Positions 4,915 through 47,477 of a DNA stretch of 64,000 nucleotides are shown here, piece after piece. The DNA is from Chloroflexota bacterium. Lineage in GTDB: Bacteria; Chloroflexota; Limnocylindria; Limnocylindrales; CSP1-4. Position numbers and translations under genes: made by a program. The notes beneath the pieces were generated by a model. It was not told where the DNA came from and searched no databases. It saw only the letters and a program-made list of their open reading frames with translations. The stretch covers positions 15,299 through 79,298 of the forward strand of contig JAKOQS010000082.1 in assembly GCA_029778235.1 (NCBI GenBank). The letters run 5' to 3'. Positions within the stretch are counted from its first letter, which is position 1. Every line of letters starts with the position of its first letter.

Positions 4915-5159
4915 AGCCCCCCCCCCCGATCGCCCGCACCCGTCGGCGTCGGGGCAGGCTGACGGTCGAGGCGCGCGGGCGAGAGTCGATGCACGAGCGG
5001 GCCGGGCATCCGCGGCGACGACCGGCACTGGCGGGTCAGCTTGGCCCGCCATACCGTCGATGGGCACGAGCGGGAGGCTCAGACACGCGGCCCACACCCC
5101 GGCCGCCGGGACCGCGCCGAGCCACTGGCGAGACCGACCCGCACGAGAAGGGGTCGGCC

Positions 5160-5791: not shown

Positions 5792-6316
5792 ATGGCGGGC
5801 ACGGAAGGCTTCCTCGAGCTGGCCGGGATCGGCGGCGTCTTCGTCGGCTTCGGGGCGCTCATCGCCATCCGGAGCGGCGGCAGCATGGCGGTGGATGAGA
5901 TCGCGGAGATGCGTGCCATGGTGTGGATGGGGGTGCTGGCGGTCGTCGCCGCTCTCGCCCCGGTGACCCTCGGCCGCTACGACGTCACCGAGCATCAGCT
6001 CTGGGCGCTGAGCAGCGGGATCGTCCTGGCCGGCGGCTTCGTCATGGTCGCCTCCATGGTCCGGACGCCGGAGTACCGGGCGAGCTGGGCCACGAACTAC
6101 TCGACGCCGCGTGCGCGATGGGTGCTGGCGATCGAGGGCATCGCCTACGTGTTCTGGATGCTCGCGGTCGTCCTCCTGCCGATCGTCATCCTGCTGGGCG
6201 CCGTCCCTGACCTCGAGCCGTCCCTGTACTTCACGTTCGTCGTTCTGCTGCTGCTCGGCGCCGCCTGGACCCTCCTCGAGCTGGTGCTCGCGGATCGGCG
6301 CCCGGCGGGCGCGTGA
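5792..6316 (+). CDS. Uncharacterised multi-pass membrane protein (paralog of 4402..4914)
   Basis: 174 aa, hydrophobic, with the same GVFVGFGALIAIRSGG motif near the N-terminus and the same ...LAPV...R[FY]DVT.H.LW... segment. Confidence 0.65.
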   Translation: MAGTEGFLELAGIGGVFVGFGALIAIRSGGSMAVDEIAEMRAMVWMGVLAVVAALAPVTLGRYDVTEHQLWALSSGIVLAGGFVMVASMVRTPEYRASWATNYSTPRARWVLAIEGIAYVFWMLAVVLLPIVILLGAVPDLEPSLYFTFVVLLLLGAAWTLLELVLADRRPAGA

Positions 6317-6327
6317 GCGGCACGGCG

Positions 6328-7419
6328 TCAGGCGGAGGGCGCGTCCTCCTCCACGAGCGCCTGCAGGCGCTCGGCCTGGTCGGCCATCACGAGCGCGTCG
6401 ATCAGCCGGTCCAGGTCGCCGTCGAGGACCCCCGGCAGGTTGTGCAGGTCCATCCCGACGCGATGGTCCGTCACGCGGTCCTGCGGGAAGTTGTAGGTCC
6501 GGATCTTCTCCGACCGGTCACCCGCCCCCACCATGCTCTTCCGGAGCGCAGAGCCCGCCTCGCGCTGCTTCTCCATCTCGAGGTCGAGGAGTCGTGAGCG
6601 GAGGACGGACATCGCCTTGGCCTTGTTCTTGTGCTGGCTCTTCTCGTCCTGGATCGCGACGACGAGCCCCGTCGGCAGGTGCGTGATGCGCACCGCGGAG
6701 TCGGTCGTGTTCACCGACTGGCCCCCCGGCCCCGTGGAACGGTAGACGTCGATCCGGAGGTCCCTCTCGTCGATCTGGACGTCCACCTCGTCGGCTTCGG
6801 GCAGGACGGCGACCGTGGCGGTCGACGTGTGGATCCGCCCGCCCGACTCGGTGACGGGGATCCGCTGGACCCGATGGACCCCGCCCTCGAACTTCAGTCG
6901 GCTGTACGCCCCGTCGGCGGAGACCTGGACGATCGCCTCCTTCATGCCGCCGATCCCCGTCTCGTTCGTGGAAAGCACCTCGGCGGGCCAGCGATGGCGC
7001 TCGGCGTAGCGGAGGTACATCCGGAGGAGCTCCGCCGCGAAGAGAGCGGCCTCGTCACCCCCGGCGCCGGCCCGGATCTCCATGATCACGGCGCGGTCGT
7101 CGTTGGGGTCGCGCGGCAGCAGGAGGACCTTGAGCTCCTCGAGGATCCGCGCCTCGGCGCCCTCCAGCTCCGCGACCTCCTGCTTGGCCATCGACCGGAG
7201 CTCCTCGTCGGGCTCCATGTCGCGCAGCTCGCGGGCACCCTCGAGCTGGGAGCGGACGTCCTGGAGATGGCGGAAGGCATCGACGACGGGCTGGAGGCGG
7301 GAGAGCTCGCGCCCAAGCCGGCGAAGGGCGTCGGGGTCCGACGAGACCTCGGGGCGGGCGAGCTCGGACTGCAGCTCGTCGTACTGGCGCGCGATGCCGG
7401 CGAGCTTGGCGTCGATCAT
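6328..7419 (-). CDS. prfA: Peptide chain release factor 1
   Basis: 363 aa with RIHTSTATVAVLPE and GGQSVNTTDSAVRITHLPTG (GGQ motif). ATGA overlap with the upstream DUF1385 gene. Confidence 0.95.
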   Translation of the reverse strand: MIDAKLAGIARQYDELQSELARPEVSSDPDALRRLGRELSRLQPVVDAFRHLQDVRSQLEGARELRDMEPDEELRSMAKQEVAELEGAEARILEELKVLLLPRDPNDDRAVIMEIRAGAGGDEAALFAAELLRMYLRYAERHRWPAEVLSTNETGIGGMKEAIVQVSADGAYSRLKFEGGVHRVQRIPVTESGGRIHTSTATVAVLPEADEVDVQIDERDLRIDVYRSTGPGGQSVNTTDSAVRITHLPTGLVVAIQDEKSQHKNKAKAMSVLRSRLLDLEMEKQREAGSALRKSMVGAGDRSEKIRTYNFPQDRVTDHRVGMDLHNLPGVLDGDLDRLIDALVMADQAERLQALVEEDAPSA

Positions 7420-14396: not shown

Positions 14397-16457
14397 CTAC
14401 CGCCCCGCGGCGGTCCGGCGCGGGTCGCCGGGCGGACCCATGTACGTCCACCGGCGGCGGACCCGGGGATCGTCGGTCCCCGGCTTCAGCGCTTCCACCC
14501 GGACGAGCGCCGAGCGCGGGCCGTCCTCGCCGGTGCGGCAGGCGAACCCGGTCGCGTCGGGGACGCCGCAGTCGTAGCAGGCGTCCCAGTGGCAATCGGG
14601 GATCGTCTCCTCCTCGCGCGACCGTCGCCACTCCTTCTGCAGGAAGGCGTCGGTGACGCCGCCGTCGAGGTGCGCCCACGGCAGCGTCTCGTCCAGCGGG
14701 ATGTCCCGCTGCGCGTACCACGCCGGGTCGAGGCCCTCCGCCGCGAAGGCGTCCATCCACAGGTCGAAGCGGAAGTGGTCGTTCCACGCGTCGAAGCGCG
14801 CGCCGGTCTCCCACGCTCGCCGGATCACCCGGCCCAGCCGTCTGTCGCCACGGGAGAGCGCCGCCTCCAGGATGGCGCTCTCGGCGTCGTGCCAGCTGAA
14901 GTCGAGGCCCTTGCCGCGAAGTGCCCGCTGGAGCGCGGCGACCTTCTCCCCGATGACCGCCATGGGGTCCTGGCCGTCCCAGACGAACGGCGTCAGCGGC
15001 TTGGGGATGAACGTCGAGACGTTCGCCTTGACCTGGGCGCGGTCACCGTGGTGCCGCCTGCCGATCGCGAGCACGCGCCGACAGATGGCCGCGATCCCGA
15101 GCACGTCGTCCAGCGTCTCGCCGGGGAGGCCGATCATGAAGTAGAACTTCAGGGTGCTCCAGCCCTTGCTGAAGGCGATCTCCGCGCATCGGGCGATCTC
15201 GTCGTCGCTCACGCCCTTGTTGATGACATCGCGCATCCGCTGGCTGCCCGCCTCCGGGGCGAACGTGAAGCTGGACCTGCGCGTGGGCGCGAGGGCATCG
15301 GTGAGGTCCACCGTGAACGCGTCGACGCGCGTGCTGGGGATGGAGACGTGCACGTCCGGGTGCCGGTCGCGGATCGCGAGCGCCACCTCCCGCACGCCCG
15401 TGTAGTCGGCCGTGGAGAGGCTCGTCAGCCCGATCTCCTCGTAGCCGGTCGCGGCGAGGATGGCGTCCGCCGCCTCGACGGCCACGGCTGCGGGTCGCTC
15501 CCGGAGTGGCCGGAACTGCATCCCCGCCTGGCAGAACCGGCAGCCGCGGGTGCAGCCGCGCATGACCTCCACCTGCGCCCGGTCGAAGACGACGGGGATG
15601 TTGGGGACCACCTGGCGGATCCCGCGGACGTTCGTCTCGAAGTCCGCGACGATGCGCCGGATGACCCGGGACGGCACCGAGGGATCGTGACGCTCGATCG
15701 CGGCGATACGTCCGTCCTCGTGGTGGACCGGCCGGTAGAGGCACGGGACGTAGACACCCGGGATCGCGGCGAGCGCGCGCAGGGCCTGCGCGCGCGAGGC
15801 GCCACGGTGGAGCGAGCCGTCCGGCCCGAGGGTCCGCTCCGTCCAACCGATCGCGCGAAGAGCCTCGCCGATCTCGACGACGACCTCCTCGCCCTCGCCC
15901 AGCACGACCGCGTCCAGGATCTCCGCCAGGGGCTCGGGGTTGAGGGTGGTGGTGCCCCCGGCGATGACGAGCGGATCGCCCGGGGCGCGCTCCGCCGTGC
16001 TCAGGCCCACGCCCCCGAGGTCTAGCATGGACAGGAGGTTCGTGGCGACCAGCTCGTAGCCCAGGCTGAACCCGATCACGTCGAACGCCGCCAGCGGCCG
16101 CCGGGTCTCCAGGCTCCAGAGCGGCAGGCCGTCGGCGCGGAGCACGTCCTGCAGGTCCACCCAGGGCGCGAAGCAGCGCTCGGCAAGGACCCCGTCGCCG
16201 TCGTTGAGGACCTCGTAGAGGATCTTGAGGCCGAGGTTGCTCATCCCGATCTCGTAGAGGTCGGGGTACGCGAGGCACCAGCGCAGGTCGCAGGCAGCCC
16301 AGTCCTTCGCCACGCTGTTCCACTCGCCGCCCGTGTAGCGTGCCGGCTTCTCGACGCGCGCGAGCGCCGCGTCGATCCGCTCGCGGGACAGGGACTCGGG
16401 GACGGGTGCGCGCGCGGCTGCCGCTCGCGGGAGCACGACGGTCATGGGGACGCTCAC
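14397..16457 (-). CDS. TIGR03960-family B12-binding-domain radical SAM protein
   Basis: 686 aa. EKPARYTGGEWNS N-terminus; CTRGCRFCQAG is the CxxxCxxC radical-SAM cluster motif. Partner DUF2344 gene lies nearby. Start is GTG 16457 or ATG 16445. Confidence 0.9.
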   Translation of the reverse strand: MSVPMTVVLPRAAAARAPVPESLSRERIDAALARVEKPARYTGGEWNSVAKDWAACDLRWCLAYPDLYEIGMSNLGLKILYEVLNDGDGVLAERCFAPWVDLQDVLRADGLPLWSLETRRPLAAFDVIGFSLGYELVATNLLSMLDLGGVGLSTAERAPGDPLVIAGGTTTLNPEPLAEILDAVVLGEGEEVVVEIGEALRAIGWTERTLGPDGSLHRGASRAQALRALAAIPGVYVPCLYRPVHHEDGRIAAIERHDPSVPSRVIRRIVADFETNVRGIRQVVPNIPVVFDRAQVEVMRGCTRGCRFCQAGMQFRPLRERPAAVAVEAADAILAATGYEEIGLTSLSTADYTGVREVALAIRDRHPDVHVSIPSTRVDAFTVDLTDALAPTRRSSFTFAPEAGSQRMRDVINKGVSDDEIARCAEIAFSKGWSTLKFYFMIGLPGETLDDVLGIAAICRRVLAIGRRHHGDRAQVKANVSTFIPKPLTPFVWDGQDPMAVIGEKVAALQRALRGKGLDFSWHDAESAILEAALSRGDRRLGRVIRRAWETGARFDAWNDHFRFDLWMDAFAAEGLDPAWYAQRDIPLDETLPWAHLDGGVTDAFLQKEWRRSREEETIPDCHWDACYDCGVPDATGFACRTGEDGPRSALVRVEALKPGTDDPRVRRRWTYMGPPGDPRRTAAGR

Positions 16458-38448: not shown

Positions 38449-39333
38449 GTGATCCCCTTCGTGCTGTTCAGCTTCCGGCGCGCGTGGCAGGGCTTCTGGC
38501 GCAACGGCCTCATGAGCATCGCCGCCACCGCGACGATGACCTTCATGCTCCTGCTGCTCGGCGGCTTCTGGGTCGTGCAGGCGGGACTGTCCGCGGGCCT
38601 CCAGTACGTCGAGCAGAAGGTCCAGGTCGTCGCGTACATGAAGGAGGATGCGACGCAGAAGCAGGTGGACGAGGCCGTCGCGGGCGTCCGCCTGATGCCC
38701 GAGGTCAAGGACGTCGCCTTCGTCAGCAAGGACGATGCCCTCGCCCGGTTCCGCGCCAACCTCGCCGAGCGCGGCCAGCCCGACCTCACGGGGAGCCTGG
38801 ACACCAACCCGCTCCCCGCCAGCATCGAGGTCTACCTCGTCGACCCCAACGACTTCGGGGCGGTCGTGACGCAGCTCGAGAGCAGCGCGGGCGTGGACCG
38901 GGTGGACGACGTCCAGCAGCTCGTCGACCGGATCACGACGGTGACCACCGTCATCCGGACCGTCGGGATCGGTGCCCTGCTCCTCGTGGGCCTGACCGTC
39001 CTCTTCATCATCGTGAACACGATCCGGCTCGCGGTGACCTCGCGCGCCGAGGAGATCGAGATCATGCGGCTGGTGGGCGCGTCGGACGCCTTCATCCGCT
39101 GGCCGTTCATCTTCGAGGGCGCCCTCGTCGGCCTGCTGGGCGCGCTCGCCACCCTGCTCATCCTCGCTGCGGCGGCGACCCCCCTGTCGTCGCTCATGCT
39201 CGGGTTCTTCCGGGTCCTCCCGCTGGAGTTCGGCACGCTGGTCCGCGACGTCGCGGTCCTCGTGGTCGTCACCGGCCTGGGGCTCGGCGTCGTCGGCTCG
39301 TATGTCTCCGTCCGCAGCTACCTCATCCGCTGA
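38449..39333 (+). CDS. ftsX: Cell division permease-like protein FtsX
   Basis: 294 aa. FRRAWQGFWRNGLMS N-terminus, periplasmic domain, and three C-terminal TM segments. Directly follows ftsE. Confidence 0.9.
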   Translation: MIPFVLFSFRRAWQGFWRNGLMSIAATATMTFMLLLLGGFWVVQAGLSAGLQYVEQKVQVVAYMKEDATQKQVDEAVAGVRLMPEVKDVAFVSKDDALARFRANLAERGQPDLTGSLDTNPLPASIEVYLVDPNDFGAVVTQLESSAGVDRVDDVQQLVDRITTVTTVIRTVGIGALLLVGLTVLFIIVNTIRLAVTSRAEEIEIMRLVGASDAFIRWPFIFEGALVGLLGALATLLILAAAATPLSSLMLGFFRVLPLEFGTLVRDVAVLVVVTGLGLGVVGSYVSVRSYLIR

Positions 39334-39355
39334 CGGGACGCCGATCGGGGAGCCG

Positions 39356-40813
39356 ATGCCGGGTGACCCGACGGCCACGCCGGAGACGAGCGGCGCCCCC
39401 GGGGGGTCCGGCGCGGCCCCGGCGGACCCGGGAGCGGCTGCCGCTCCACCCGGCGGCGGTCAGCCCGTGGACGGAGATGGCCGGTCGGGCCGGGCGCGGC
39501 GTCGCCCGCTCGCCGTGGTCGTCGCCCTGCTGCTCGTCGCGGTCCTGGGCGGATCGGTCGTCTTCCTCTCCGGCTACGCGCTCGGCGCGCGGGTCGCCAC
39601 CACGCCCGGCACGCCGGCGGACGAGGCGGAGCTCTGGGCGCCGTTCTGGGACGCCTATCGGGCCATCACCGACCAGTTCGTCGGCGAGGTGGACCAGAAG
39701 CGGCTGGTCGAAGGCGCGATCGGCGGGATGGTGGACTCGCTCGGCGACCGCTGGTCGCAGTACCTCACGTCCGAGCAGTACCGCGACAGCCTCCAGGGGA
39801 TCTCGGGGCGCTTCTCCGGGATCGGCGCCGAGATGCAGGGCCAGCCCGCGCCGGGCGGCGAGCCGTGCACGCCGCTGGGGCCTGCGTGCCGGCTGACCGT
39901 CGTCTCCACGGTGCCGGGAGCCCCGGCCGAGAAGGCCGGCATCGTGCCCGGCGACGCCGTGCTCGCGGTGGACGGGGCCTCGCTCGCCGGCCTCACCAGC
40001 GAGGAGGCGACGGCGAAGATCCGGGGACCCAAGGGGACCCCCGTGACGCTCACGATCGCGCGCGGGTCGGAGCCGGTGCGGGACGTCGAGATCGTCCGCG
40101 ACTACATCGCCCGGCCCGAGGTCACCTCCAGGATCCTGGCCGACGGGACGGTGGGCTACGTGAAGCTCTCGGGCTTCAGCGACAGCGCGTCGAAGGCGTT
40201 CGCGGCGACGGTGGCGGACCTCGCCGGCCAGGGCATCACCAGGTTCGTGGTGGACATCCGGGGGAACCCAGGCGGGTTCGTGTCGGCGGCGCGCGACATC
40301 GCGAGCCAGTTCATCGCGTCCGGCCCCGTCTACTTCCAGGAGGACGCCCAGGGAACGCGCGTCGAGGTGGATGCGAAGTCCGGCGGGGCCGCGACCGGCG
40401 ACGACGTGCGCGTGACCGTGCTCGTGGACGGGAACAGCGCATCCGCCAGCGAGATCGTGGCGGGCGCGCTGCAGGACCGCGGGCGCGCGACGCTCGTCGG
40501 CGGCCGGACGTTCGGCAAGGGGACGATCCAGGAGTGGCTGCCCCTCCCCAACGACACGGGCGGGATGCGCCTGACCGTCCTGAAGTGGCTCACGCCCGCC
40601 GGCCGATGGATCCACGAGAAGGGGATCGAGCCGGACATCGCCGTGGACACGGGTGCCGCGGCGGGCGAGGCATCGGCCACGGGCGACGCCGTCCTCGACC
40701 GCGCCCTCGAGGTCCTGGCCGGCTCCCCGGCCGGGCCGGGCGGGTCGGCGACCCCGGCCGCGACGCCCACGCCGGCCGCCTCCGGCGGTCCGGGAGCCTC
40801 GCCCGTTCCCTGA
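39356..40813 (+). CDS. S41-family C-terminal processing peptidase with a PDZ domain
   Basis: Start at ATG 39356, preceded by GGGGAG. Contains VVDIRGNPGG, GNSASASEIVAGALQD (catalytic Ser) and TFGKGT (Lys). Confidence 0.9.
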   Translation: MPGDPTATPETSGAPGGSGAAPADPGAAAAPPGGGQPVDGDGRSGRARRRPLAVVVALLLVAVLGGSVVFLSGYALGARVATTPGTPADEAELWAPFWDAYRAITDQFVGEVDQKRLVEGAIGGMVDSLGDRWSQYLTSEQYRDSLQGISGRFSGIGAEMQGQPAPGGEPCTPLGPACRLTVVSTVPGAPAEKAGIVPGDAVLAVDGASLAGLTSEEATAKIRGPKGTPVTLTIARGSEPVRDVEIVRDYIARPEVTSRILADGTVGYVKLSGFSDSASKAFAATVADLAGQGITRFVVDIRGNPGGFVSAARDIASQFIASGPVYFQEDAQGTRVEVDAKSGGAATGDDVRVTVLVDGNSASASEIVAGALQDRGRATLVGGRTFGKGTIQEWLPLPNDTGGMRLTVLKWLTPAGRWIHEKGIEPDIAVDTGAAAGEASATGDAVLDRALEVLAGSPAGPGGSATPAATPTPAASGGPGASPVP

Positions 40814-40987
40814 CAGGTGGCTGCGCCTCGCCCGGATGGCCGGCCCCCCGGACGCGGCCGCCACGGGCCGGCGACGCCTGCGCTCGCCGGGCGATCCCGG
40901 CGCCGGCCCCCGGGCCGGCGGCCGGCCATCTCCGGTCCCCGGGCGGCCTCACCCGGTCGGCCGGGACCTCGGCCGGAAGGTGGCTCT

Positions 40988-41016
40988 TGCGGCATCGGGC
41001 CGCGTCGGCTATCGTC
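40988..41016 (+). promoter_or_regulatory. Candidate promoter upstream of the smpB leader RNA
   Basis: TTGCGG (40988-40993), a 17-nt spacer, then TATCGT (41011-41016). Confidence 0.35.
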
Positions 41017-41021
41017 CCCGG

Positions 41022-41149
41022 CAACGAAAGGAGGTGATGTGCAGTGATAGATCACAGTAGCTGCACCACCTCGCGGGAGACGAAGGCCTAGGACCTTCGC
41101 CCCGCAAGGTGGGTGAGCTTCGAACGCCGGCCCTCCCGGGCCGGCGTTC
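41022..41149 (+). ncRNA. Candidate structured leader or small RNA upstream of smpB
   Basis: Three hairpins read by eye: H1 41032-41073, H2 41068-41112 (shares CACCTC with H1), and H3 41122-41149. Bases 41027-41039 (GAAAGGAGGTGAT) are a perfect complement of the 16S rRNA 3' tail. Confidence 0.35.
41122..41149 (+). terminator. 12-bp GC-rich hairpin (possible intrinsic terminator/attenuator without a U-tract)
   Basis: GAACGCCGGCCC, loop tccc, then GGGCCGGCGTTC form a perfect stem. It lies 86 nt upstream of the smpB ATG. Confidence 0.4.
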
Positions 41150-41235
41150 GCGCGTCCGGCGCGACCGAGGCCGGACCACCGGCGAAGGGCGTCGCGCATC
41201 GCCCGCCGGCCCCCACCCAGACAGGAGTGACCCCC

Positions 41236-41700
41236 ATGGGCGAACAGACGATCGCCCTCAACCGGAAGGCCCGCCACGACTACCTCATCGAGGAGACACT
41301 CGAGGCGGGGATCGTCCTGACCGGGACCGAGATCAAGAGCGTCCGGGCGCACAAAGTGAACCTGACGGACGGCTACGTCCGGATCGAGCGTGGCGAGGCG
41401 TGGCTCGTCGGCGCGCACATCGCGCCCTTCGAGGCCGGCAACCGGTGGAACCACGAGTCGAAGCGGACCCGGAAGCTGCTGCTGCACCGCTCGCAGATCG
41501 TGACGCTCGGGGTGCGCGTGAAGTCGAAGGGGCTGACGATCGTCCCGCTCCGGCTGTACATCGACGACCGCGGGCACGCCAAGCTCGAGCTGGGGATCGG
41601 GCGCGGGAAGAAGCAGTACGACCGCCGTCGGGACATCGCCGCGCGCGATTCGCGGCGCGAGGTGGAGCGCGAGCTGGCCGACACGAGCCGGGGGCGCTAG
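41236..41700 (+). CDS. smpB: SsrA-binding protein SmpB
   Basis: Start at ATG 41236 with AGGAG 9 nt upstream. Contains NRKARHDYLIEETLEAGIVLTGTEIKS and LLLHRSQI. Confidence 0.95.
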   Translation: MGEQTIALNRKARHDYLIEETLEAGIVLTGTEIKSVRAHKVNLTDGYVRIERGEAWLVGAHIAPFEAGNRWNHESKRTRKLLLHRSQIVTLGVRVKSKGLTIVPLRLYIDDRGHAKLELGIGRGKKQYDRRRDIAARDSRREVERELADTSRGR

Positions 41701-42497
41701 GTCGTCTCCTCCGCGAGGCCCGGGCCCCGGAGCGGAGCGGGCCGCAGCGGCTCCAGACGACGCGCCGCAGCCGCCGCATATCCCGGGTCGATCTCGATCC
41801 CCACGAACCTGCGACCCAGCCCGAGGGCCGCCGCGCCCGTCGAGCCCACGCCCGTGAACGGGTCGAGCACGAGGTCCCCCGGCCGTGAGCCCCACTCGAT
41901 CAGCCGACGCAGGACGGCCACGGGCTTCTGCGTCGGGTGGCGGGGCTCCTTCACGCGCTCCGCGCCCATGCAGATCGGCGCCTCGATGAAGTTGTGCATC
42001 TCCCGCTGGCGCGTGAAGTTCCAGGTGTGCCCTCGGTCCCATGCGGCGACGATCAGCTCGCAGCTGTTGAGGAAGCCGGCTCGGCGGAGCTTGGGCGGCG
42101 GGTTGGTCTTGTGCCAGACGACGACCTGGAACGTGTCGAACGCGGGGTCGTACGCCGCGTGCCACCGGCCGAGCATGTTGTAGCTGGTGAAGGCGAACAG
42201 GTTGCCGGTCGGCTTGAGGACGCGCCGGATCTCGGGAAGCCAGGCGGCCGGGTCGAAGGTCTCCGCGTCCCAGTCCGCGACGTCGTTGTTGAACGGCGCG
42301 CGCCAGGTGGGCGCGATGTTGCCGGTCGAGTAGTGCGCGAGGTTGTACGGCGGGTCGGTGCAGACGAGGTCGACCGACGCGTCGGGGATCCCGCGCAGCA
42401 GGATGCGGGCGTCGCCCTGCCAGAGCTGGAGGGCGGCGGAGGGGTCGAAGACGGGCAGGGCCGGGGCGTCCGGCGCATCGCCGTGGTCACGAGACAT
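41697..42497 (-). CDS. Site-specific DNA methyltransferase (N4/N6, beta-class, PF01555-like); no restriction partner seen
   Basis: Start at ATG 42497. Contains SVDLVCTDPPYN (motif IV), then HPTQKPVAVLRRLI and VLDPFTGVGSTG (motif I), which is the beta-class order. Confidence 0.9.
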   Translation of the reverse strand: MSRDHGDAPDAPALPVFDPSAALQLWQGDARILLRGIPDASVDLVCTDPPYNLAHYSTGNIAPTWRAPFNNDVADWDAETFDPAAWLPEIRRVLKPTGNLFAFTSYNMLGRWHAAYDPAFDTFQVVVWHKTNPPPKLRRAGFLNSCELIVAAWDRGHTWNFTRQREMHNFIEAPICMGAERVKEPRHPTQKPVAVLRRLIEWGSRPGDLVLDPFTGVGSTGAAALGLGRRFVGIEIDPGYAAAAARRLEPLRPAPLRGPGLAEETT

Positions 42498-42657
42498 CGA
42501 TGGGATGGTACCGGCAGCAGGGTCGGGCGCGGTGGATCCTGCCGTCCGGCGACGATATGCTGGCGTGCACGCCATGGGGCGTGCTAGATTCGTTCTCAGA
42601 GCGCCGTCGAGGTCCGGAAATCGAACCTCCGGCCGGAGACACCCGAGGCGATCCGCC

Positions 42658-44211
42658 ATGGCGATCCTCCACCCGTCGAAGCCGTCCGAGCCCTCAGACG
42701 CCGGGGTGCCGCAGGGCGCGCCGCCCGCCCCGGCCGACCCCACCCCGGTCGACGCGTCCCCGTCGGGACCTCCGGCTGCCGCGGCACCCGCCCTGCGGTT
42801 CGCGCCCGTCCCCGCGCGGATGGAGCCGCCCGAGGGCCCCACGGTCTCGTTCGACCCCGATCGGATCGCCCGGCTTCTCGAGGAGGAGTCGCACCGCCTC
42901 GACGAGTCGACGCCGGGCTCCGCCGCGACGTTCGCGCGGGCGAAGCGGACCCTCGCCGGCGGCGTTCCCTCGTCCTACCAGGCCCGGAAGCCATGGCCCA
43001 TCTACCTCACGCGCGGCGACGGGCAGTACGTATGGGATGTCGACGGGCGCCGGTACCTCGACGTCCACAACGCGTTCGGGAGCATGGTCCAGGGCCACGC
43101 GCACCCGCTGATCACGGAGGCTGTCTCGCGCCGGATGGCGCTCGGCACCCACTTCGCGGCACCCACCGAGGACGCGATCGTCGTCGCGGAGGAGCTCGAG
43201 CGGCGCTTCGGGCTGCCGCAGTGGCGGTTCCTCAACTCCGGGTCCGAGGCGACGATGGACGCGATCCGCCTCGCACGGGCGATCACCGGCCGCGACACCG
43301 TCCTGAAGATCTTCGGCTCGTACCACGGCCACCACGACTACGTCATGGTCTCGATCGGGCTCTCCGAGGAGCACATGGGCGACCGCGAGGACTACCCGTC
43401 GGTCGCGTACGGCGCGGGCATCCCGCCGAGCGTCACCGCGATGACGGTGGCTGTCCCGTTCAACGACGGAGATGCCCTCGAGCGACGGATCGTCCGCCTC
43501 GAGGCGGAGGGCCGGGCGCCCGCCTGCCTGATCATGGAGGCGGCGCTGATGAACTGCGGCGTCATCCTCCCCGAGCCCGGCTACCTCGACCGCGTTCGCG
43601 AGATCACGCGCCGGCACGGGATCGTCTGGATCGTCGACGAGGTGAAGACCGGCCTCACGATCGCCCCCGGCGGCGCGTGCGAGTACTTCGCGATCCAGCC
43701 GGACCTCATCTGCCTCGCGAAGGCCCTCGGCGGCGGCCTGCCGTCCGCCGCGATCGGTGCGACGCACGAGATGATGGAGCCGGTCCTGACGGGCCGCGTC
43801 TGCATGGTCGGGACGTACAACGGGAACCCGCTCGTCATGGCGGCGGCACGCGCCAACCTCCTCGAGGTGATGACGCCCGCCGCGTACGACCACCTGGAGC
43901 ACATCAACCGCCGGCTCCTGGACGAGACCCAGGGGGTGATCGACGCCTACCGCATCGCGGCCTACCCGGTCGGGATCCGGTCGAAGGGGGTCGTCGCCTT
44001 CTCCGACTCGAAGCTGGTGGACTACGAGACGTTCAAGCGGGCGCAGGACGAGCAGCTCATGGCGCTCGCCTGGCTCTGGAACATGAACCGCGGGATCTTC
44101 GCCACGCCGGGCCGCGAGGAGGAGTGGACCCTGTCGATCCGGATGACCGACGACGACGTGGATCACTACGTGAGCGTCTTCGCGGAGCTGATCGACGCGC
44201 TGACACGGTAG
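42658..44211 (+). CDS. Class-III (PLP-dependent) aminotransferase, glutamate-1-semialdehyde aminomutase-like
   Basis: NSGSEATMDAIRLARAITGRD, DEVKTG, and DLICLAKALGGGLP (PLP Lys). The first ~55 aa are P/A-rich, so ATG 42820 is an alternative start. Confidence 0.85.
   Translation: MAILHPSKPSEPSDAGVPQGAPPAPADPTPVDASPSGPPAAAAPALRFAPVPARMEPPEGPTVSFDPDRIARLLEEESHRLDESTPGSAATFARAKRTLAGGVPSSYQARKPWPIYLTRGDGQYVWDVDGRRYLDVHNAFGSMVQGHAHPLITEAVSRRMALGTHFAAPTEDAIVVAEELERRFGLPQWRFLNSGSEATMDAIRLARAITGRDTVLKIFGSYHGHHDYVMVSIGLSEEHMGDREDYPSVAYGAGIPPSVTAMTVAVPFNDGDALERRIVRLEAEGRAPACLIMEAALMNCGVILPEPGYLDRVREITRRHGIVWIVDEVKTGLTIAPGGACEYFAIQPDLICLAKALGGGLPSAAIGATHEMMEPVLTGRVCMVGTYNGNPLVMAAARANLLEVMTPAAYDHLEHINRRLLDETQGVIDAYRIAAYPVGIRSKGVVAFSDSKLVDYETFKRAQDEQLMALAWLWNMNRGIFATPGREEEWTLSIRMTDDDVDHYVSVFAELIDALTR

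Positions 44212-45673: not shown

Positions 45674-47477
<1,804 letters not shown>

Follow-up and report, generated by a model that had tools for sequence, protein, structure and literature searches.

A clade-specific 5' leader of smpB in high-G+C Chloroflexota with a probably translated mini-ORF and a predicted bistable Shine-Dalgarno switch

What is a long complement of the 3' tail of 16S ribosomal RNA (rRNA) doing far upstream of smpB, the gene for the protein partner of transfer-messenger RNA (tmRNA)? To our knowledge, little is established on how bacteria set the level of SmpB. The question is raised by a 64,000-nucleotide (nt) stretch of DNA from a Chloroflexota bacterium (positions 15,299 to 79,298 of the forward strand of contig JAKOQS010000082.1, assembly GCA_029778235.1), here called the window, whose positions are used throughout and in which smpB (41236-41700, + strand; Pfam SmpB, E = 1.8e-57) lies downstream of a compact structured element of about 130 nt. 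We put at roughly 0.6 the probability that this element is a leader that works through a translated upstream mini open reading frame (mini-ORF) in the smpB messenger RNA (mRNA) and that, we infer, controls smpB.

The 16S complement GAAAGGAGGTGAT occupies positions 41026-41038 on the + strand, one position upstream of where an initial annotation, made from the sequence alone, had placed it (41027-41039). As that annotation had stated, it is complementary over 13 nt to the conserved 16S 3' tail; this figure rests on the general conservation of the tail, the 3' end of the host's own 16S rRNA lying outside the window. The 13-mer stands 2 to 4 nt from the predicted 5' end of the RNA and occurs only once in the window, even when one mismatch is allowed, with a chance expectation of 0.01 matches. 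The initial annotation had seen in it an anti-16S sequence without a usable start codon, the nearby starts opening only ORFs of 2 to 7 codons. This is contradicted by a GTG at 41044, placed at the optimal spacing of 9 nt after the GGAGG core, which opens a mini-ORF of 15 codons (41044-41091, + strand; MIDHSSCTTSRETKA) ending at a TAG at 41089-41091; every relative has kept this ORF. Because this GTG opens a conserved ORF, the 13-mer is not an orphan but the extended Shine-Dalgarno (SD) sequence of the mini-ORF. The 2-codon (GTG CAG TGA) and 7-codon ORFs were considered as well and rejected: the frame of the GTG at +4 is open for tens of codons in many relatives, so these short ORFs are not conserved.

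How widely the element occurs was assessed in two ways, one of them independent of its sequence. A search with the SmpB protein, limited to one genome per species, gave 71 loci. The six closest, L001 to L006, are metagenome-assembled genomes of Chloroflexota with SmpB identities of 67-88%, and the element stands at the same place in all six. Five of them (L001, L002, L003, L005 and L006) carry GAAAGGAGGTGAT unchanged; L004 has a variant in which the SD is GAAAGGAGGTGGT (GGAGGTGGTG), the anti-SD is CACCGCC and the start codon is ATG. The remaining 65 smpB loci, among them those of less closely related Chloroflexia, Actinomycetota, Bacillota and Proteobacteria, gave no covariance-model match and have no long SD ahead of smpB. 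The second search was a metagenome scan with a two-block DNA pattern, CGAAAGGAGGTG and GCACCNCCTCG separated by 20-50 nt, in which 12 SD and 10 anti-SD nucleotides are preset. At least 120 contigs matched, and among the matches listed, all but one (L173) are clear members, from Chloroflexota of soil, sediment and sludge. From these data, 100 distinct members entered a covariance-model alignment, to which the counts out of 100 given below refer; the sequences are related, and the counts are thus not counts of independent events.

Among the loci listed, smpB lies downstream on the same strand in 109. The 18 loci without a same-strand smpB comprise 16 that end within 350 nt, the false positive L173, and L179, in which smpB is inverted. 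In nearly all of these loci, 22-254 nt separate the 3' hairpin of the element from the beginning of smpB, and in more than 25 of them the distance is at most 45 nt. Gaps of 45 nt or less leave no room for a separate promoter, and smpB must there be transcribed from the conserved promoter of the element and through its hairpin. These comparisons indicate that the element is a clade-specific conserved 5' leader of the smpB mRNA in high-G+C (guanine plus cytosine) Chloroflexota.

Several single loci deserve mention. In L179, the only such long contig among the matches listed, the leader (5804-5949, +) and smpB (6327-6866, -; Pfam E = 1e-56) converge at a distance of about 400 nt, to be explained either by a local inversion or by misassembly. 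Locus L157 has a gene of the isochorismatase family (Pfam E = 7e-36) between the leader and smpB (320-472, 581-1141 and 1357-1827, all +). An apparent second copy of the leader in L136 (1049-1203, +; 46 bits) was rejected, as it consists of a partial leader, the 3' half, from another strain, attached at an NN scaffold gap inside smpB. In L125, L127, L185, L168 and other loci where the hairpin and smpB are 22-34 nt apart and the mini-ORF begins MSEHSR..., we saw no recognizable SD before the smpB start, the starts in short-gap loci being placed by tblastn and possibly a few codons off.

The alignment also allowed us to ask whether the mini-ORF has been maintained as a reading frame. Its start codon falls in a single column (GTG in 97 members and ATG in 3), and so does the first base of the in-frame stop in all 100 (TAG in 71, TAA in 26, TGA in 3), giving lengths of 15, 16 or 17 codons. 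The two variable segments inside the mini-ORF take only lengths of 16, 19 or 22 nt and of 12 or 15 nt, that is, they change in 3-nt steps; two variable segments just past the stop occur in all lengths between 12 and 19 nt and between 7 and 18 nt, covering all residues modulo 3. The remaining two frames of the region are interrupted by stops. Fixed start and stop columns together with insertions and deletions in 3-nt steps are the pattern expected from selection for translation, and the comparative evidence says that the mini-ORF is translated, with frame, start and stop maintained across the family. The encoded peptide is more variable than its frame: there are 58 distinct peptides, a clear third-position wobble is found only at the acidic residue 3, the invariant Cys-Thr-Thr-Ser is what the anti-SD encodes, and the last five residues track a covarying stem. 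For annotation, the gain is a conserved ORF of 15-17 codons that gene callers overlooked.

The SD of this mini-ORF has two alternative states. In helix H1 (41031-41072, +), GAGGUG (41031-41036) and GUGCAGU (41039-41045, start codon included) pair with GCUGCACCACCUC (41060-41072), which holds the anti-SD core CACCACCUC (41064-41072, +; CACCACCTC in DNA) inside the mini-ORF. In the other state, H2, an anti-anti-SD, GGUGG (41108-41112, +), pairs with CCACC (41066-41070) to form H2-outer, and the SD is freed. The inner hairpin consists of helix 2 (GCGGG..G / CCCCGC; 41073-41079 with 41100-41105, +) and of helix P3 (CGAAGG / CCUUCG; 41081-41086 with 41094-41099, +), whose loop contains the stop codon of the mini-ORF. 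The initial annotation had proposed mutually exclusive H1 and H2 around the anti-SD, with inner stems GCGGG/CCCGC and CGAAGG/CCTTCG, and all of these are present, exclude each other and are conserved.

Thermodynamic folding placed the two states close to balance. The minimum-energy fold contained H1 in 49 members and H2 in 51, and for the window sequence itself the minimum flipped between H1 and H2 with a few flanking bases. Blocking the SD, which mimics a bound 30S subunit, gave H2 in 100/100 members, blocking GGUGG gave H1 in 100/100, and a modelled ribosome footprint at the stop codon gave H1 in 97/100. According to these models, the leader is a conserved bistable switch of SD, anti-SD and anti-anti-SD, with states that are about isoenergetic.

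The pairings themselves were evaluated by covariation. The score of the whole structure was 0.200 (slid controls, 0.03-0.055; 0/500 shuffles as high), and 19 pairs changed on both sides, compared with 11.7 ± 1.4 in shuffles and 6-9 with slid partners, in an alignment that was fitted to the structure. Changes on both sides were found at 4 of 6 pairs in helix 2 and at 5 of 5 in P3. GGUGG is nearly invariant though it lies outside the search pattern; it is 99-100% paired with the anti-SD, with one compensatory G-C pair in L124. H1 appears in the RNAalifold consensus, with 99.3% of cells paired. Covariation in relatives had been put forward in the initial annotation as a check on the helices, and it is present in helix 2, P3 and the 3' hairpin and absent from H1. 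Misalignment of the variable stems made MAFFT and RNAalifold alone miss the inner helices; realignment with a covariance model recovered them. The 138-nt leader segment folds well beyond its shuffles (z = -5.9), but the opposite strand does so too (z = -6.3), and folding energy alone therefore does not pick the strand.

The 3' hairpin, T (41117-41153, +), follows the switch. Its 13 base pairs (bp) join CGAACGCCGGCCC (41121-41133) to GGGCCGGCGUUCG (41138-41150) across a UCCC loop, with a possible extension by GC at 41117-41118 and GC at 41152-41153, and it ends 86 nt ahead of the smpB ATG (41236); the initial annotation had the distance right and the stem, given as 12 bp, one pair short. Changes on both sides occur at 9 of 14 pairs, and two positions have G-U pairs in 30 of the 100 members each, a frequency that fits an RNA read from the + strand. 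The central GCCGG/CCGGC (41126-41130 / 41141-41145) is invariant in 99-100 of the 100 members, and the flanking pairs covary. The core is thus conserved beyond the needs of pairing and may be a recognition site for a protein or a nuclease. A conserved UGC past the stem is able to pair with a conserved GC ahead of it, and the tail past the GC core is enriched in U (40%, a mean of 4 of 10, compared with a background of 17%). A DNA-level operator was rejected: the loop spans anywhere from 0 to 5 aligned columns, and one-strand G-U pairs are in keeping with an RNA and not with a palindromic protein site.

The promoter-like TTGCGG-N17-TATCGT of the initial annotation is present (40987-41015, +, read from sequence; -35 TTGCGG at 40987-40992, 17-nt spacer, -10 TATCGT at 41010-41015) and is kept in 117 distinct relatives, whose upstream sequences have the consensus cTTGCgc-N17-gTAcGgT at a fixed distance from CGAAAGG. 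A generic sigma-70 scan did not call the pair at 40987-41015. The -10 element ends 10 nt ahead of CGAAAGG, which places the predicted start at about 41022-41024. The G+C content is 0.57-0.65 across 41020-41109, as opposed to 0.75-0.92 upstream. The core of the initial annotation, a structured and conserved smpB leader with a putative promoter of its own, is borne out, the leader recurring in the six SmpB-selected genomes and in at least 119 metagenome contigs.

We then compared these predictions with assembled RNA data. Two sludge metatranscriptomes hold one 181-nt contig each, identical to window positions 41051-41231 and 41056-41235, and neither has a contig over the 3' end of the upstream protease gene or the spacer. 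In a soil metatranscriptome, a contig of variant L083 begins within the mini-ORF, crosses the hairpin and enters smpB, with a depth of about 18, equal to that of the leader contig. In the same soil run, one contig end directly abuts adapter sequence at the initial G of the GGAGG core, 5 nt into the L083 13-mer and a few nt past the predicted start; this is expected if the extreme 5' nucleotides were lost in library making, and a processed end would look alike. Contigs from three other soil runs reach upstream of the predicted start in other strains, and read-in from upstream or DNA carry-over is therefore possible. The observations named in the initial annotation as speaking against it, among them transcripts that read straight in from the protease gene, do not refute it: in the two sludge runs, coverage begins near the predicted start, with none ahead of it, whereas the three soil contigs do reach farther upstream in other strains. 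Depth of coverage was rejected as a gauge of termination, as the contigs mix many strains across the conserved core and their depth is uninterpretable in that respect; further runs, which also mix many strains, were uninformative. On balance, the RNA contigs agree with transcription that begins at the predicted promoter and continues across the hairpin into smpB. Since they run through the hairpin, a free-standing small RNA (sRNA) of about 125 nt ending there, as had been suggested, is not the main product seen.

How could a mini-ORF that encloses its own anti-SD act on smpB? In the mechanism that we propose, a 30S subunit capturing the SD would trap the open state (H2), the translating ribosome would melt H2, and the anti-SD would re-pair with the SD as the ribosome reaches the stop codon. 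The site would therefore close after each passage and admit about one ribosome at a time, making initiation self-limiting. The dwell of a ribosome on this 5'-terminal mini-ORF would be long when elongation or termination is slow, and the dwell time would set the fate of the smpB message, through protection of its 5' end or through altered read-through of the weak terminator-like hairpin. As for direction, the leaders of ermC, whiB7 and hflXr suggest by analogy that smpB expression would rise when a ribosome is held on the mini-ORF; of all the steps proposed, this is the least secure. The leader might in this way be a ribosome-status gauge for trans-translation, that is, a self-resetting gate whose occupancy reports slow elongation or termination and sets SmpB synthesis, giving feedback from stalling to rescue without a terminator/antiterminator pair. 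We offer this fuller scheme tentatively and at odds clearly below even. This scheme would retain the "ribosome-sensing leader" of the initial annotation in an altered version, in which ribosomes are sensed as they translate the mini-ORF. Should smpB indeed be controlled by ribosome traffic on the mini-ORF, translation status would feed back directly on ribosome-rescue capacity, by the unusual design of a leader ORF that gates its own ribosome-binding site.

Several points weigh against a leader that acts through its mini-ORF. Translation of the mini-ORF is deduced from sequence comparison, and the RNA evidence consists of assembled contigs of mixed strains, with DNA carry-over possible. At the variable codons, a ratio akin to that of nonsynonymous to synonymous change (dN/dS) is 0.76, compared with 0.92 and 1.06 in the shifted frames. 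Such weak amino-acid constraint fits a leader peptide, with no positive sign of a stalling peptide; a weakly constrained peptide is the profile of a leader ORF, in which the act of translation outweighs its product. H1 is without covariation, and its invariance is partly circular, the SD and anti-SD having been fixed by the metagenome search pattern; being invariant, H1 is neither supported nor refuted by covariation. On the side of output, hairpin T has no canonical U-tract, and a scan for hairpin-plus-U-tract terminators was negative for the window as well as for the variants richest in U. When a ribosome was placed at each peptidyl-site (P-site) position, for every codon of the mini-ORF, the core of hairpin T stayed intact in 99-100 of the members modelled, and no output mechanism was visible. 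Nor is there a conserved pairing with the SD of smpB, CCACC-like motifs occurring nearby in just 48 of 98 loci; pairing of GGUGG with such a motif at the smpB ribosome-binding site was rejected on this count, the sequence there being C-rich.

The explanation that competes best with a mini-ORF-based leader is a constitutive 5' stabilizer like STAB-SD, the element of cry3A mRNA that stabilizes by binding 30S subunits and thereby blocking RNase J1 (PMC4113751). In such a stabilizer, the SD would bind 30S or close into H1 and the hairpins would block exonucleases, giving the smpB mRNA a long life with no sensing, and the mini-ORF would be tolerated or would only clear a bound ribosome. The cry3A precedent is close in that each mRNA has at its 5' end a GAAAGGAGG-type full complement of the 16S 3' tail, here 2-4 nt from the predicted end and far upstream of the main gene. 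Furthermore, no switchable output structure was found, and the RNA contig end inside the SD of a homologue is what a 5'-3' exonuclease halted by bound 30S would leave. However, a STAB-SD by definition directs no initiation, whereas the smpB leader has its SD inside a switch and conserves a start at 9-nt spacing, a fixed stop and frame-preserving insertions and deletions; an anti-SD and an anti-anti-SD of equal energy would also be unneeded. We regard a mere stabilizer as unlikely, while giving it more weight than any explanation that follows.

The leader might, in principle, be an independent small gene, whose transcript of about 130 nt stops at the hairpin and yields a functional peptide of 15-17 amino acids or an sRNA, smpB being reached by incidental read-through. 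Such a gene would have what is seen here, namely a conserved promoter of its own, a strong SD, an ORF that has been maintained, and a hairpin resembling a terminator whose tail is enriched in U, and the third-position wobble at acidic residue 3 agrees with a functional peptide. The weak resemblance of the leader to a known RNA is likewise to an sRNA. A scan of the whole window with Rfam 15 at gathering thresholds found only a tmRNA and a cyclic di-GMP-II (c-di-GMP-II) riboswitch, both elsewhere, with no match at the leader; a permissive scan of 40800-41300 gave only sub-threshold matches, the best being RF01867 CC2171 (18.5 bits against a gathering score of 75; E = 0.09; 41018-41147, +). CC2171, an alphaproteobacterial sRNA of unknown function, shares a 5' CGAAAGGAGGUGAU..CAGUG and a 3' GC-rich hairpin with the leader, while the middle of the model does not align to it, and at gathering threshold no CC2171 was found in 11 alphaproteobacterial smpB loci. 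As an Rfam check had been proposed in the initial annotation, we note that no known RNA family explains the leader. A small gene is at odds, moreover, with the near-universal same-strand linkage to smpB and gaps too short for another promoter, with RNA contigs that cross the hairpin at equal depth, and with a peptide that is poorly conserved beyond its RNA-pairing part (58 distinct sequences, ratio 0.76) and whose C-terminal residues follow a covarying stem. We consider it quite unlikely.

Classical ribosome-mediated transcription attenuation, in which a stalled ribosome frees an antiterminator as in the hflXr, whiB7 and trp leaders, is improbable on our evaluation. The order of parts does match (leader ORF, then alternative helices, then a GC-rich hairpin and its U-enriched tail, then the gene), and hflXr (PMC6310831) and whiB7 (bioRxiv 10.1101/2025.10.10.681568) are functional precedents. 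However, hairpin T was never opened in constrained folds with the ribosome at every codon, its core remaining intact in 99-100 modelled members at every P-site position, and a ribosome at the stop codon would be unable to cover it because the stop lies about 30 nt upstream. At least thermodynamically, the models contain no antiterminator alternative to hairpin T. The initial annotation had taken this hairpin for the terminator half of an attenuator, a role that it assumes in no modelled ribosome position and for which the canonical terminator pattern is missing from the window and from the most U-rich variants.

A riboswitch or protein operator, with a metabolite or a protein (for example SmpB, through mimicry of tmRNA) shifting the balance of H1 and H2, would suit the bistable design and the bases that are invariant beyond pairing requirement (GGUGG and GCCGG/CCGGC), but we found no Rfam family or described aptamer class at threshold, no evidence of ligand binding and no similarity to the tmRNA of the window (local alignment score of 21, compared with 19 ± 2.3 for shuffles), and the maintained reading frame, unexpected of an aptamer, favors a coding leader over the riboswitch architecture of the initial annotation, so that this explanation is very improbable.

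A mini-ORF-based leader can be compared with several known systems. The ermC leader combines translational attenuation with mRNA stability induced by a stalled ribosome, and its helices hide the SD of the downstream gene. It resembles the smpB leader in its short ORF near the 5' end and its mutually exclusive helices involving an SD; the helices of the smpB leader, in contrast, hide the SD and start codon of the mini-ORF, and the smpB SD has no conserved partner. The rli80 leader of hflXr (lmo0762) in Listeria monocytogenes is a ribosome-dependent transcription attenuator with an ORF of about 14 amino acids and an RLR arrest motif (PMC6310831). It too has a short ORF in a structured leader with alternative helices, the ORF spans the first element of the alternative pairing, and the gene controlled encodes a factor that recycles stuck ribosomes, in the case of hflXr by splitting them. 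However, rli80 has an anti-antiterminator, an antiterminator and a terminator, whereas the smpB leader shows no antiterminator and no RLR motif, and its switch acts on the mini-ORF's own SD; the two leaders are from different phyla and have no sequence relationship. The whiB7 attenuator of Actinobacteria has an upstream ORF (uORF) of 83 amino acids in M. smegmatis and a terminator/antiterminator (bioRxiv 10.1101/2025.10.10.681568). In whiB7, as proposed here, the speed of uORF translation in a high-G+C organism controls a translation-stress response linked to trans-translation; the differences are the long uORF, the terminator/antiterminator, and a regulated gene that encodes a transcription factor rather than SmpB. 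In the regulation of arfA by trans-translation in E. coli (PMC10107115), too, the expression of a rescue factor is set by ribosomes on a hairpin-containing mRNA, but that mRNA is the truncated, non-stop message of the factor itself, whereas the mini-ORF has retained its stop codon and stands apart from smpB.

Since what defines rli80, whiB7, ermC and STAB-SD is in each case missing from the smpB leader, the leader would be a new variant of the leader-ORF kind, outside the described families. Full-text literature searches found no conserved cis-regulatory leader described for smpB. As a compact element with an abundant family, it is a candidate new RNA family for Rfam.

The genes around the leader in this high-G+C window are ftsX (38449-39333), the gene of an S41 C-terminal protease (39302-40813), smpB, and a convergent DNA methylase gene. 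The C-terminal tail of the S41 protease is rich in Pro, Ala, Gly and Ser, and the G+C content rises to 0.85-0.92 at 40690-40960, across the last part of the protease gene and the spacer behind it. A GTG at 41113, within the segment GGUGGGUG, is in frame with smpB (41113-41700, +) and would extend it by 41 codons; as the length of the spacer varies freely among relatives, this extension is probably due to chance. Downstream, the N6/N4 DNA methylase gene (41697-42842, -) converges on smpB, the ends of the two ORFs sharing 4 nt (41697-41700). A tmRNA gene lies about 4 kb downstream of smpB (45674-46048, +) and encodes the tag peptide GNRQPALALAA. Farther away, the window contains a c-di-GMP-II-GAG riboswitch aptamer (5064-5148, +), with an Rfam score of 67.8 bits relative to a gathering score of 40.

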